This document shows, in pieces, positions 3,295 to 8,895 of a stretch of DNA of 9,000 nt (position 1 is the first letter of the stretch; each line of letters starts with the position of its first letter). A program made the translations under genes and the position numbers. Source of the DNA: Candidatus Electronema aureum. Lineage in GTDB: Bacteria; Desulfobacterota; Desulfobulbia; Desulfobulbales; Desulfobulbaceae. The DNA is taken from the NCBI GenBank assembly GCA_004284765.1, contig NQJD01000060.1:1-9000 (forward strand). The letters run 5' to 3'. Below the pieces are notes generated by a model that was given only the letters and a program-made list of their open reading frames with translations, did not search any database and had not been told where the DNA came from.

Positions 3295-3340
3295 AAAAAA
3301 GGATTCCCATCCCGATCCTAAAAGGATGGGAATCCTTTTT
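3295..3340. terminator. Bidirectional rho-independent terminator; copy 1 of a repeated hairpin element
   Basis: A6-GGATTCCCATCC (3301-3312) pairs with GGATGGGAATCC (3324-3335)-T5 across an 11-nt loop. The core stem is a perfect 12 bp, extended by A/T pairs. A T-run follows on both strands. Confidence 0.65.
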
Positions 3341-3363
3341 ACATTTCATCGCCCGTAGAATAC

Positions 3364-3456
3364 AAAAAAGGTTACTCAACCCAGCTGCAATTCATCGAGC
3401 GTATAATTCCACGCGGGATGAGTATCCCAGCGCGTTCGCATCGAGTAACCTTTTTT
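3364..3456. repeat. 93-bp element bounded by perfect 14-bp inverted repeats
   Basis: aaaaaaggttactc (3364-3377) is the exact reverse complement of gagtaacctttttt (3443-3456). The 65-nt interior contains a second hairpin, cgcgggat-gagt-atccc(a)gcg (~3412-3433), and a lone TATAAT (3402-3407). Confidence 0.5.
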
Positions 3457-3517
3457 CCGCTGGACGAGCGTTCCGCCGCTGCAACTGCCCTTGCTTGTCT
3501 TTACGAAGCGTTCCCGG

Positions 3518-3546
3518 TTGACAGAGGCGGTTCCGGTGCTTACCGT
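3518..3546 (+). promoter_or_regulatory. Possible promoter for the 89-aa orphan gene
   Basis: TTGACA (3518-3523), 17 nt, then TACCGT (3541-3546). The -10 is weak (3/6), so the call rests on the perfect -35 and on position ~70 nt upstream of ATG 3616. Confidence 0.25.
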
Positions 3547-3615
3547 AGGATGATCAGCACGTTGGCATTTAAGCAGGAGAATATCACCCAGTATTCCAAA
3601 GAGAGGTTCTTTAGC

Positions 3616-3885
3616 ATGAAGATCAATATGGCGCATCTCAAAGAACGTTCAACTAGCGGCGGATGGATTAATTTTGCCGTATTCGACGCGAAATCGACAA
3701 ATGGTGACAACGCTGGACTTCTAAACAAGTTAACAATCGAAGCCCGATCAAATGGACTTAAGGTTTATCAATCAGCTTTAGCATTTCAGTCAGGAGGACG
3801 TATCCAGTTTTACGGAGATAAAGATCTTGTTGCCTATCTATCCAAGGGTTGGAGACCTCAGTGGACACATACTATTAATATATAG
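3616..3885 (+). CDS. Hypothetical protein, 89 aa, no family recognised
   Basis: GAGAGG lies ~10 nt upstream of ATG 3616. The product is MKINMAHLKERSTSGGWINFAVFDAKSTNGDNAGLLNKLTIEARSNGLKVYQSALAFQSGGRIQFYGDKDLVAYLSKGWRPQWTHTINI. It is AT-richer than the host (48/120 G+C over nt 3661-3780 by hand count). Hairpin copy 2 follows ~60 nt downstream. The tracked ORF start at 3418 would read through the 93-bp inverted-repeat element and is not credited. Confidence 0.55.
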   Translation: MKINMAHLKERSTSGGWINFAVFDAKSTNGDNAGLLNKLTIEARSNGLKVYQSALAFQSGGRIQFYGDKDLVAYLSKGWRPQWTHTINI

Positions 3886-3941
3886 ATTGAAAACTTATGG
3901 TCTATTTTAAAGCATTGCGCCTCGAGTCAGTGCTATGACAT

Positions 3942-3982
3942 AAGGATTCCCATCGTATCCAAAAAAGGATGGGAATCCTTTT
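3942..3982. terminator. Hairpin terminator; copy 2 of the repeated element
   Basis: aaGGATTCCCATC (3942-3954) pairs with GATGGGAATCCtt (3968-3980), followed by tt. It is near-identical in sequence to copy 1, with small indels in the loop (gtatccaaaaaa versus cgatcctaaaa). Confidence 0.6.
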
Positions 3983-4020
3983 CTCCGCCTGAAAATCACC
4001 CCTCCCCTTCCACAAACCCC

Positions 4021-4049
4021 TTGACAACATCTCCGCTGCGATTTACGCT
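4021..4049 (+). promoter_or_regulatory. Possible promoter of the three-gene cassette
   Basis: TTGACA (4021-4026), 17 nt, then TACGCT (4044-4049). The layout is the same as the candidate promoter at 3518, with a weak -10. It lies ~60 nt upstream of ATG 4108. Confidence 0.3.
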
Positions 4050-4107
4050 GCCGAGAAGCATTATCCCACCTGTCTGCGCTTCATTTCCCTTTGCATTGGA
4101 GCATGTT

Positions 4108-5181
4108 ATGGCAACAATTCAATGTCGGCTCGAAGTCAACGCCCTCACCGTTCCCCAGTCCTACAAGATACGTTTCGTGCCCCGCGACAGCATGGACACG
4201 GACGGCATAGCCGCTGCGATGGCGGCAGAGAACCCGAACTACAGCCTGGAAGACAACAAAACCATGCTGGCCAATCTGGTGCGCGTCCTCCAGAAGAACC
4301 TGATCAACGGCACGCAGAGCACGGTTGACGGCGCGTTCACGTTCGGCTTTTCCTTCACCGGCAGATTGGACAACCCGGATGACCCGCTGCCGCCGGCTGA
4401 GGACATCCTGCGCGTGGATGTCCACGTGCTGGCTCCGTTCCTCAAGGAAATCCGGCGGCAGGCCCAGCTGGAGCGGCTACCCATGATCGAGAAGGCCCCG
4501 CTGATCAACGCGGCGGAAGACACGGTGCTCGGCCTTGACGACGTGCTGCACAGCGGCGGCGCATTGCGGCTGACCGGCAGCAATCTGCTCTTTGATCCGA
4601 AGAGGTCGGACGAGGGCTGCGTGATTGAAGGAACGCGCTCCGGGCGGGCCGCGCAGACGCGCTTCGCCGGCATTTCCAATGCGGAAGTCACGCTGCTGCC
4701 TGAGTTCCCGACGCAGAACGAGCCGTGGAACAACGAGTACATCCTTTCCCTCAGCACACGCTACACCGAAAACGGCACCCTGCGCACCGGCATCTACCGC
4801 CGCAGGCTGCGCGCACCGCTCACTGCGGCGCAGCTCGGCAGCCCGACTCCGCCGGAGACTGGCATCCTTACCGATAAGGCCGCCTCGCCCTATGTCAAAA
4901 TCACAGGCGGCAGTTTGAACGCCGACGAGACCGTGCGCGTCCAAGCTGTTCTTGAGCACGACGGCAGCCTTTCTGTCAGCCTGCTCGACATGAGCGAAGG
5001 CGGCAGGACAGGCGCGTCGGTTCGTGTTGCCGCCAACGGCGCATACGTGCTGCCGGGCTTCGCCGGTTCCGCTTTGAGCAGCCTGAACATCACGGTCAGC
5101 AGATTCGCCGATCTGGTGAAGATGATCAGGAGCGGGTACAGTGGACGAGTTGTGGATGTGCTGGTGGTGAAGACAGCGTAA
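4108..5181 (+). CDS. HU-like (Bacteroidetes-type histone-like) DNA-binding domain fused to a DUF4469-like Ig-fold domain, with an extra C-terminal beta-rich region; 357 aa
   Basis: GGAG (4097-4100) lies 7 nt before ATG 4108. The N-terminus, MATIQCRLEVNALTVPQSYKIRFVPRDSMDTDGIAAAMA...NKTMLANLVRVLQKNLINGTQSTVDGAFTFGFSFTG, follows my recalled pattern for HU_HIG/DUF4469 proteins. That pattern is Y-L-N-LT..DY-A-V..S...EDI..M, then L..G..V-T, then S..G-F. The middle, PLINAAEDTVLG..DVLHSGGALRLTGSNLLFDPKRSDEGCVIEG...NEYILSLSTRYTENGTLRTG, matches the DUF4469 pattern P-I..V-D...LTPGG-L-I-G..LKFD....GVFF...Y-L-V-T-Y. The assignment is from memory and was not searched. Confidence 0.6.
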   Translation: MATIQCRLEVNALTVPQSYKIRFVPRDSMDTDGIAAAMAAENPNYSLEDNKTMLANLVRVLQKNLINGTQSTVDGAFTFGFSFTGRLDNPDDPLPPAEDILRVDVHVLAPFLKEIRRQAQLERLPMIEKAPLINAAEDTVLGLDDVLHSGGALRLTGSNLLFDPKRSDEGCVIEGTRSGRAAQTRFAGISNAEVTLLPEFPTQNEPWNNEYILSLSTRYTENGTLRTGIYRRRLRAPLTAAQLGSPTPPETGILTDKAASPYVKITGGSLNADETVRVQAVLEHDGSLSVSLLDMSEGGRTGASVRVAANGAYVLPGFAGSALSSLNITVSRFADLVKMIRSGYSGRVVDVLVVKTA

Positions 5182-5203
5182 CTATGCACAAAGGAGAATC
5201 GTT

Positions 5204-5503
5204 ATGGATGTAAAGGCAGCAGTGAAATTGGCGAAGGAGTATGCTCTTGATCTCTTTGCTGATGAAAACATCACCAATCTTGGACTTGAAGAAGTAAGTT
5301 TTTATGATGAAGACGGGGAATGGACAGTCACGCTCGGCTTCTCGCGCCCGTGGGATGAGCCGCGCAACACGCTTGCCTCGTTGGCGCAAACAAATCTGCC
5401 CCGCCGCTCATATAAGATTGTGCGTATTGATGACAACGGGAAAGTGAAGGGTGTCAAAAACCGCGAGGGGAAATACGAGATGAACTATGAGGCACCTTTT
5501 TAA
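5204..5503 (+). CDS. Hypothetical 99-aa protein, candidate partner or antitoxin of the downstream PIN protein
   Basis: AAGGAG lies ~8 nt upstream of ATG 5204, 22 nt after the previous stop. The product begins MDVKAAVKLAKEYALDLFADENITNLGLEEVSFYDEDGEWTVTLGFSRPWDEPRN... I see no RHH, AbrB, HTH or Phd-like motif. Its last 17 nt overlap the next gene. Confidence 0.7.
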   Translation: MDVKAAVKLAKEYALDLFADENITNLGLEEVSFYDEDGEWTVTLGFSRPWDEPRNTLASLAQTNLPRRSYKIVRIDDNGKVKGVKNREGKYEMNYEAPF

Positions 5504-5963
5504 AGGCGGTCTGCTCATAGACACCAACCTGCTGGTGCTGTTTGTTGTCGGCACGGCGGCAAAGGAGTATATTGCCAAGCACAAGAAGCTGACCGAGTTC
5601 ACGGTGGAAGACTATGACCTGCTGGTCAAGCTCATCGCAAGGGCTTCGGAGGTGCTTGTCACCCCGAACACATTGACCGAGACTTCCAACTTAGCGGCAT
5701 ACATCGGCGAGCCTGCGCGGAGCAAGGTAATGGATGTTCTGCGCACGGTGAGTATAGACTCGCAGGAACGGTATGTGCCCAGCAGCGCGGCTGCCCGGCG
5801 CAGCGAGTTCATCCGGCTGGGACTGGCTGATGCCGCCCTGCTTGAGGCAACTGCGGCGGAGAAGGTGACGTTGCTGACAGCCGACTTCAACCTGTATCAC
5901 GCTGCGCTGGCCAAGGGCAATCAGGCACTCAACTTCAATCATCTCCGCGACCGATATATGTAG
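5487..5963 (+). CDS. PIN-like domain nuclease, 158 aa (candidate toxin/effector)
   Basis: Acidic residues sit at PIN-typical positions and contexts: LLID12TN, TPNTLTE65TSN, GLAD115AALLE and LLTAD133FNLY. The size fits a PIN domain. The start ATG 5487 overlaps the upstream gene by 17 nt, which suggests translational coupling. Confidence 0.75.
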   Translation: MRHLFKGGLLIDTNLLVLFVVGTAAKEYIAKHKKLTEFTVEDYDLLVKLIARASEVLVTPNTLTETSNLAAYIGEPARSKVMDVLRTVSIDSQERYVPSSAAARRSEFIRLGLADAALLEATAAEKVTLLTADFNLYHAALAKGNQALNFNHLRDRYM

Positions 5964-8207: not shown

Positions 8208-8895
8208 TAGGGCCTGTTAACACTACTGCTTAATTAATAACCTTTTGTTATTGTTGCCCTATGGAAATAACACAGGAGCAATACGAGAAGATAGCCGACA
8301 GCTTGCCTCGTCAGAGAGGCAATGTCACAATTGACAACCTCACGATGCTGAACGCCATGCTGCATGTCCTTGAACATGGGTGCACTTTTCACTCGACAGC
8401 ACGGTCATCAAAGTTCATCCTGACGGAACTGGGGCATTAAAAAAAATGGCCCTCAGTCGATCGGCAAATCCTGTGGCGGATGGACAACAAAACTGCATAT
8501 GATTGCCGCATCTGCTGAATGCGCGGTGATTTTCTCTCTTTCTCCCGGCTAGGCCGGAGATGCGCCGGAAGGCCGCAGGCTGCTGATAAAACTGGGAGCG
8601 GCCTCGGAACCCTGCGCGATGATCATGGATAAGGCGTATGAAGGAGATGAGACGAGAAAACTGGTCTCGGAATGAGGCTTTTCTCCTGTCGTGCCGCCGA
8701 AAAGCAGTCGGACAGAACCTTGGGAGTATGACAGGGAACTGTATAAAAAACGAAATGAAGTCGAGTGGCTGTTCAGGAGACTGAAGGGATTCCACCGCAT
8801 CTTCACCCGGTTTGACAAACTCGATGTCATGTTCATGGGGTTTGTCGTTTTGGCCCTGATCGTGACAGCAATCAAATAATGTTAACAAGGCCCTA
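8208..8895 (+). mobile_element. Decayed IS5-family insertion sequence with terminal inverted repeats
   Basis: The left end is tagggcctgttaaca (8208-8222). The reverse complement of the right end (8880-8895) is tagggccttgttaaca, differing by one indel. The outer TA on each side may be a 2-bp target duplication. The interior encodes a broken DDE transposase. Confidence 0.75.
8261..8879 (+). pseudogene. IS5-family DDE transposase pseudogene
   Basis: The N-terminus MEITQEQYEKIADSLPRQRGNVTIDNLTMLNAMLHVLEHGC (frame of 8261) breaks off where KWR.LP should follow, indicating an internal deletion near 8385-8392. It resumes in another frame as LDSTVIKVHPDGTGALKK. A further -1 shift in an A8 run (8439-8446) leads to NGPQSIGKSCGGWTTKLHMIAA...SPG-TAG(8550)-AGDAPEGR...DKAYEGDETRKLVSE-TGA(8673)-GFSPVVPP...YKKRNEVEWLFRRLKGFHRIFTRFDKLDVMF. 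These are classic IS5-family motifs. Confidence 0.8.

Follow-up and report, generated by a model that had tools for sequence, protein, structure and literature searches.

Three genes packed closely on one strand may form a single system with divided tasks, or they may be separate units that have come to share a transcript. This question is raised by a locus of Candidatus Electronema aureum, a cable bacterium from freshwater that belongs to the Desulfobulbaceae, in a stretch of DNA of 9,000 nucleotides (nt) which is referred to here as the window. The three genes, designated A, B and C (Table 1), encode proteins that are 100% identical to CDV28_1606, CDV28_1607 and CDV28_1608 of this species, respectively. 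In an earlier note, they had been interpreted as a candidate three-gene toxin-antitoxin (TA) or defence module in which the DNA-binding role may have moved to the protein A. Our analysis points to a different arrangement, to which we assign a probability of roughly 0.7. We propose that the interval consists of two separate units transcribed together, i.e., an independent gene A resembling the HU-HIG clade and an autonomous VapC-like pair, B-C, with a non-canonical partner protein.

One genome per species was scanned with a profile of C, which gave at least 551 loci, and the best 80 of these, from many phyla, were kept. B was located directly upstream of C in all 80 loci, usually with a 4-nt overlap, and the gap ranged from -4 to +10 nt in most of them. 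The phyla represented include Proteobacteria, Chloroflexota, Nitrospirota, Acidobacteriota, Cyanobacteria and others. A was found beside B-C at two of the 80 loci (L001 and L003), both in metagenome-assembled genomes of Desulfobulbaceae, and tblastn and phmmer searches of the 80 loci with expectation values (E) up to 10 detected A near the pair in these two only. The earlier note had held that its interpretation would fall if the three genes did not co-localise in other genomes, and this is largely what was observed. All-against-all clustering and a Pfam scan of 143 flanking genes of the 80 loci showed no recurring alternative third gene, and these 143 nearest neighbours match 128 Pfam families. 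The commonest neighbour families were Mrr_cat (6), G_glu_transpept (5), Bac_luciferase (5) and NA-iREase1 (4), followed by N6_N4_Mtase, Uma2 and Type ISP (3 each) and PemK (2). Restriction-type domains are among the most frequent neighbours of the pair; the housekeeping families G_glu_transpept and Bac_luciferase are equally frequent, and many other housekeeping genes were present. None of the three proteins matched a model of PADLOC-DB v2, with E values as high as 1 admitted, and none had a hit in PHROGs. These results do not support a three-gene module, whereas the TA-like interpretation of B and C fits the constant adjacency of the two genes, the PIN fold of C and its small upstream partner. 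B-C is a horizontally mobile module of two genes, autonomous and present in hundreds of species of many phyla, and it is probably a TA pair with an unusual antitoxin.

The assignment of a PIN-type acidic tetrad to C was supported by the alignment, in which 19 diverse homologues all carry D12, E65, D115 and D133. The AlphaFold2 (AF2) model of C has a mean predicted local distance difference test score (pLDDT) of 93 and a predicted template modelling score of 0.89. Its top Foldseek matches were all PIN domains, including VapC of M. tuberculosis (5x3t_B, template modelling scores 0.61/0.69), SMG6 and PAE2754. The match of C to Pfam PIN has an E of 1e-3, which is below threshold, and a divergent paralogue at L001, C', which is 32% identical to C, lies above it. 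We consider C most likely a VapC-type Mg2+-dependent PIN ribonuclease, with the fold and the residues as the observed part and the nuclease activity as the predicted part of this assignment. A scan of metagenomes for close relatives of C gave 9 short contigs and added little, and a look-up of a second E. aureum copy of C (P0035) returned no record.

B is an acidic protein with an isoelectric point (pI) of 4.85. The earlier observation that B carries no recognisable DNA-binding motif was borne out, as no family match was found and the modelled fold is not a DNA-binding one. B had no match in Pfam, NCBIfam, PADLOC or PHROGs, and 24 of its homologues had none in Pfam or NCBIfam. In the AF2 model (mean pLDDT 82, core above 90), one helix packs on a four-stranded antiparallel sheet, and this is not an AbrB, ribbon-helix-helix (RHH), helix-turn-helix (HTH) or Phd fold. 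The top Foldseek matches were 4k90_B and 4r80_A, with a fungalysin propeptide and a designed cystatin fold as the nearest solved folds, and the modelled fold may be described as cystatin/PepSY/propeptide-like. The B family comprises 2539 clusters at 50% identity, and almost all of them are stand-alone proteins of 90-100 aa. A resemblance of B to amoebiasin-2 was rejected, since the motif match was only at chance level in a search against solved structures. Our search of the literature on DUF4469, on PIN with PepSY and on cystatin-like antitoxins found nothing relevant.

The first gene had been proposed to fuse an HU-type domain to immunoglobulin (Ig)-like domains, and this architecture is supported at the level of the family. 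In the A protein of the window, the matches to HU-DNA_bdg and DUF4469 are below the Pfam threshold. Among 19 members of the family, HU-DNA_bdg was matched by 15 (best E 4e-9), Bac_DNA_binding by 11, DUF4469 by 10 (best E 3e-6) and HU-HIG by 8. The A profile also weakly matches the structure 4FMR in the PDB over residues 28-224, with 4FMR residues 32-224 aligned at E 0.04, and the alignment spans the HU and Ig domains. The possibility that the C-terminal third of A is a second DUF4469-like repeat was rejected on the basis of hhalign (probability 0.5%). The arms of canonical HU proteins carry basic residues. In A, the HU-like domain is acidic (pI 5.1), and inspection of the alignment by eye shows many acidic residues in its arm region (GRLDxPDDPLPP), so that a DNA-binding role of A is doubtful. 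For HU-HIG proteins fused to Ig domains, the 4FMR structure points to a clasp that is not DNA-binding (PMC5499826), and the acidic HU-like domain of A is consistent with such a clasp.

The search for A homologues gave 883 sequences, with several paralogues per Electronema genome, and all named ones are from Candidatus Electronema, Electrothrix or Desulfobulbaceae. At least four paralogues are present in E. aureum and at least four A-family genes, one of them 5'-truncated, in Electronema sp. VV, with identities of 50-67%. The length of the family is very uniform (~357-359 aa), and its members are located in accessory regions rich in TA and defence genes. The neighbours differ at every A paralogue examined (Table 1), the exception being the linkage to B-C in one set of copies. 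The HU-HIG clade of Bacteroidetes likewise shows lineage-specific expansions, rapid divergence and 'almost entirely' no conserved operon partners (PMC5499826). We conclude that A belongs, as one copy among several, to a lineage-specific expansion of cable bacteria, independent of B-C and resembling this clade. Since a function in biological conflicts was proposed for the HU-HIG clade (PMC5499826), the A family may by analogy have a role related to genetic conflict. In Electronema sp. VV (L107:1-8080), a full-length purL (1261 aa) is separated from a second, shorter purL-like gene (917 aa) by an A paralogue together with four genes that are small or accessory; this layout and that of L081:5001-8633 suggest an insertion at purL with partial duplication.

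The layout of the locus agrees with its earlier description. Three co-oriented open reading frames (ORFs), a 22-nt spacer with AAGGAG and a 17-nt overlap of B and C (5487-5503) were found in the ORF map and the sequence. A longer ORF opens at TTG 4021. Because every homologue begins with MAT(I/V)Q, the true start of A is the ATG at 4108, and the TTG is part of the -35 hexamer. The promoter upstream of A had been described as the single candidate. It was not called by a generic consensus scan; the pattern TTGACA-N17-TAnnCT was found 74-88 nt 5' of the ATG in 10 of 10 A-family genes examined, and because its hexamers and spacing recur in all of them, the promoter is well supported. No convincing terminator was found inside the interval. 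The lone plus-strand match (5522-5537) is at chance level (5 found versus 3.6 expected), in agreement with the reported lack of an internal hairpin. The generic scan flagged no internal promoter for B-C in the 3' end of A, where a weak one is possible. The dyad-symmetric element is located 39 nt upstream of the -35 hexamer of A.

The start of C differs from that of its relatives. In the clade, C usually starts at TTG or GTG and overlaps the stop codon of B by 4 nt (TTGA or GTGA). In the window, the usual TTG is mutated to TTT and an ATG four codons upstream is used. The atypical 17-nt overlap and the length of 158 aa instead of 154 aa are due to this shift of the start. The leader between A and B is kept in all cable-bacterial copies of B-C, and AAGGAGAA is invariant in their alignment.

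Within the cable bacteria, the linkage of A to B-C is older and more frequent than the figure of 2 in 80 suggests. Several cable-bacterial copies of B-C have no adjacent intact A, and B and C are intact in them (Table 1). Since relics of the last codons of A, fused to the conserved leader, precede B in three of these four groups (L104, L103 and L002), the cable-bacterial copies of the pair descend from an A-linked ancestor, from which A was lost repeatedly while B and C were kept. The A genes linked to B-C are not each other's closest relatives, because A of the window is nearer to the unlinked copy at L081 (67% identity) than to the linked ones at L101 (61%) and L003 (53%). We read the A-B-C arrangement as a historical juxtaposition with co-transcription and not as an obligate partnership, and some lineage-specific functional coupling of A and B-C may exist in cable bacteria.

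Two of these loci contain additional antitoxin-like or TA-like genes. At L103:1588-4465 of Electronema sp. VV, a truncated A (302 aa; ~1.2 kb upstream of the pair) is followed by a DUF3800 gene, a gene for a 66-aa RelB/Phd-like antitoxin and B-C. The RelB-like gene is a canonical DNA-binding antitoxin gene and is located 22 nt before B. Its last codons (LKTA and stop) match the terminus of A, which indicates a recombination junction inside the 3' end of A. At L001:3692-4502, a second, divergent pair is located directly upstream of A, giving the order B'C'-A-B-C. B' has 108 aa and is 30% identical to B, and C' has 163 aa. The position of B'C' is occupied in the window by a low-GC segment of 600 bp.

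The base composition had been described as mosaic inside the operon. The G+C content at third codon positions falls from 0.80 in A to 0.53 in B and is 0.73 in C and 0.83 in katA, which confirms this description. In a comparison with L001, identity is mostly 90-100% in C, in katA and over the 3' two-thirds of A, 78-88% in the HU-like part of A (4105-4400) and 60-80% in B (5185-5510), and the upstream DNA is unrelated. The synonymous divergence (dS) between the window and L001 is 0.86 for B and 0.45 for the HU-like part of A, a 4- to 10-fold elevation over the flanks in A and C (0.10-0.13). Between L101 and L102, dS is 2.2 for B and ~0.2 for these flanks. The ratio of nonsynonymous to synonymous divergence (dN/dS) of B is 0.26 for the window versus L001 and 0.11 for L101 versus L102, and dN/dS values of 0.18-0.33 were obtained overall in the former comparison. 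Since dS of B is high relative to its flanks and dN/dS is low, we conclude that B alleles were swapped by recombination between close relatives, independently of C. In exchanges between close relatives, the HU-like domain of A was replaced along with the DNA upstream of it. An origin of the divergence of B in positive selection was rejected in view of the elevated dS and of dN/dS values of 0.1-0.26.

The following course of events would account for two units on one transcript. The juxtaposition of A and B-C would have arisen once, in the ancestor of the cable-bacterial copies of the pair, and would then have been carried to several sites. A was later deleted from some copies, with B and C retained, and B alleles were exchanged by recombination. 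B is translationally coupled to C, presumably on one transcript, and would bind and block C, which would act as a VapC-type Mg2+-dependent ribonuclease. As B is unable to bind DNA, transcription of the pair probably relies on any promoter that precedes it. In the window, its transcription would be borrowed from the promoter of A through the 22-nt spacer, by presumed co-transcription.

Several results weigh against two independent units of this kind. A-B-C is kept in at least four cable-bacterial lineages with unlike downstream genes and with A only 50-62% identical between lineages. Such retention of the order could mean selection for linkage, and no terminator was found between A and B. For the pair itself, the Foldseek E values are modest, with 1.7e-3 at best for C and 2.7e-2 at best for B, and a sequence search of the PDB with C gave nothing even at E 10. 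B is most likely an inhibitor that binds C, as a type II antitoxin, and this is argued from gene order, coupling and analogy only. The retained order also speaks for a true lineage-specific tripartite system, in which A was recruited in cable bacteria as a regulator, sensor or scaffold of B-C. The order, a spacer of ~22-28 nt and the leader persist in the window, L001, L003, L101 and L102 despite an identity of A of ~50% and differing flanks. There is one promoter and no terminator, B is without a DNA-binding fold, and all cable-bacterial copies of the pair come from an A-linked ancestor. However, the pair is intact without A at L002 and L104-106, it lacks A and any clear relic of it at L089-91, and at L103 a truncated A lies ~1.2 kb upstream. 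No A is present beside B-C in 78 of 80 genomes elsewhere, and the A paralogues have unrelated neighbours. Moreover, the identities do not place the A genes linked to the pair in one monophyletic group, the HU-like domain is acidic, and B was swapped by recombination independently of both A and C. On balance, we consider a tripartite system unlikely.

It is also rather unlikely that B-C is an anti-phage (abortive-infection) or stress-triggered ribonuclease module, with B in the role of inhibitor or sensor, freed by a signal from an invader, and A as a separate defence-island gene. The neighbours of the pair are modestly enriched in genes of restriction and defence, namely Mrr_cat, NA-iREase1, Type ISP, N6/N4 methylases, ApeA and, in Electrothrix, HsdRSM. 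A paralogues adjoin AbiTii, HigBA and HEPN/MNT-like genes, and the proposed role of the HU-HIG clade in biological conflicts (PMC5499826) would fit such a setting. On the other hand, many copies of B-C are located between housekeeping genes (threonine synthase, biotin synthase, ilvC, ftsH, spoU), and no PADLOC model is matched by the three proteins. The exchange of B alleles could be the product of an arms race over the inhibitor or sensor, but the low dN/dS of B (0.1-0.26) indicates allele replacement and not positive selection on residues. The integrase and insertion sequence (IS) relics and the low-GC insert that flank the region raise the further idea of a decaying accessory patch without current function, in which the three genes are remnants between mobile-element relics. 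The ancestral TTG start of C, now TTT with the upstream ATG forced, would agree with decay. Yet none of the three ORFs is disrupted, dN/dS lies at 0.18-0.33 for the window versus L001, the catalytic residues of C are invariant, and the promoter and the Shine-Dalgarno sequence are conserved. Decay is therefore highly improbable, and two separate units on one transcript remain our preferred interpretation.

Arrays of 2-7 units were observed upstream of the A-family promoters, with a strict period of 23 bp (46 bp in two cases) and a short palindrome in each unit (Table 1). The sequence of the array differs for each A paralogue. According to Tandem Repeats Finder, arrays of period 23 or 46 occur only at these positions in 161 kb of cable-bacterial DNA, and in most loci they end 12-63 nt before the -35 hexamer. 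The array of L001 is located ~1 kb upstream of A, ahead of the B'C' pair. In the window, the hairpin of the dyad-symmetric element is at the equivalent position, with AAGGAT words 23 nt apart, and it could be a bidirectional terminator which insulates the promoter of A. Because each paralogue examined has its own array upstream of an otherwise identical promoter, and because the HU-like domain was replaced jointly with the upstream DNA, the cable-bacterial proteins with HU and DUF4469 domains might be sequence-specific nucleic-acid-binding regulators or sensors with private operators. In A-B-C, such a protein would have captured a PIN pair without a DNA-binding antitoxin, giving a conflict-responsive three-part module unique to the lineage. 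We regard this reading as a whole as quite improbable.

Table 1. Features of the A-B-C locus and of related cable-bacterial loci. Positions without a locus name are those of the window.
Feature	Position	Strand	Description
Dyad-symmetric element	3937-3985		Arms of 13-18 nt, A-run before and T-run after; second copy at 3296-3340 (repeat search)
Promoter of A	4021-4049	+	Sigma-70-type; TTGACA 4021-4026, 17-nt spacer, TACGCT 4044-4049
Gene A	4108-5181	+	357 aa; HU/IHF-like ~aa 6-110, DUF4469 Ig-like ~aa 133-224, beta-rich C-terminal third without domain assignment
A-B spacer	5182-5203	+	22 nt; Shine-Dalgarno sequence AAGGAG at 5191-5196
Gene B	5204-5503	+	99 aa; helix-plus-sheet; putative antitoxin
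Gene C	5487-5963	+	158 aa; predicted VapC-like PIN-domain nuclease
A-B-C locus, window and its orthologue L001			katA downstream
A-B-C locus, L003			Gene for 244 aa downstream
A-B-C locus, L101			Rhomboid gene downstream
A-B-C locus, L102			ispG downstream
B-C without adjacent intact A, L002			~17 nt of the A 3' end upstream of B
B-C without adjacent intact A, L103			5'-truncated A, DUF3800 gene and RelB-like gene upstream; ~17-nt relic of A
B-C without adjacent intact A, L104-106			After spoU; ~45 nt of the A 3' end in L104
B-C without adjacent intact A, L089-91 (Electrothrix)			After hsdRSM; no clear relic of A
A copy, L081 (E. aureum)			Between ars-type operon and purL; 21 nt before 844-aa purL-like gene
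A copy, L082			Between HigBA and DUF4160/DUF2442 pair; own terminator hairpin
A copy, L085			After AbiTii
A copy, L107			Next to purL and radical-SAM gene
A copy, L108			Before M48 peptidase gene
Upstream array	L081:4740-4891
Upstream array	L082:1243-1293
Upstream array	L085:4789-4857
Upstream array	L003:4339-4466
Upstream array	L107:3265-3356
Upstream array	L108:3264-3401
Upstream array	L101:2301-2381
Upstream array	L001:3481-3569

The wider surroundings of the three genes correspond to the accessory patch described in the earlier note, with the two hairpins, the catalase gene, relics of an IS4/5 transposase and a relic of a DUF6538 integrase by a tRNA-Leu gene. Between the two hairpin copies, a low-GC segment (3340-3940, GC ~0.41-0.50) encodes an 85-aa product in a small ORF (3628-3885); Pfam, NCBIfam, PADLOC and PHROGs gave no hit for it, and the related loci contain no homologue. 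On the minus strand, a low-GC ORF (186-1291) has a DUF6538 N-terminal domain as found at the start of phage-type integrases, and no catalytic domain was detected in it. This ORF adjoins a tRNA-Leu(CAG) gene at 1205-1291, and the arrangement looks like an old integration site. At 8261-8876, a broken transposase of the IS4/IS5 family was observed, with its DUF4096 N-terminal and DDE_Tnp_1 C-terminal pieces in different frames and a long antisense ORF over both.

Compared with VapBC type II systems, B-C shares a predicted PIN fold with four conserved acidic residues and the N-terminal hhhDTN, central TETSN, GLxDA and TxD motifs of C. It also shares a small, co-oriented upstream partner gene with a 4-nt overlap, and a multi-copy, patchy and horizontally spread distribution beside other TA and restriction-modification genes. 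Canonical VapBC antitoxins have an N-terminal DNA-binding domain (AbrB, RHH, HTH or Phd/YefM) which autoregulates the operon. In contrast, B has none of these domains and is a compact helix-plus-sheet protein without family assignment. C is too divergent for any PDB sequence match, and its Pfam PIN match is below threshold. With tripartite TA systems (paaR-paaA-parE, and TAC, which consists of HigBA and a SecB-like chaperone), the locus shares three co-oriented, tightly spaced genes, a single promoter and the toxin in the last position. A differs from the third component of these systems, as it is neither an HTH regulator nor a SecB-like chaperone, belongs to an independent multi-copy family and is not conserved with the pair (2 of 80).

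The A family shares with the HU-HIG clade (4FMR of Bacteroides vulgatus; Burroughs, Kaur, Zhang & Aravind 2017, PMC5499826) the fusion of an N-terminal HU-like domain to DUF4469, which is Ig-like, numerous fast-diverging paralogues per genome, essentially no conserved operon partners and conflict-type neighbourhoods. It differs in its occurrence in cable bacteria of the Desulfobulbaceae instead of Bacteroidetes and in being ~90 residues longer, with an additional C-terminal domain. Its uniform length, its conserved private promoter with 23-bp repeat arrays upstream and the long-standing linkage to a PIN module in one sub-lineage are further differences.

The conserved unit of this locus is thus two genes, which corrects the over-extended claim of a new tripartite system. 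The B-C pair is a variation on the VapBC theme with a non-canonical partner, and A is a non-Bacteroidetes branch of the HU-HIG-like expansion; both are new. The pair represents a large TA-like family, found in at least 551 species genomes and with ~2,500 clusters of B at 50% identity, which is absent from NCBIfam, from PADLOC and, for B, from Pfam. The putative antitoxin B has a fold that is not used by known VapB antitoxins and no DNA-binding domain, which raises the question of how the pair is regulated. The HU-HIG-like expansion in cable bacteria offers a second, independent lineage for studying the role of such proteins.

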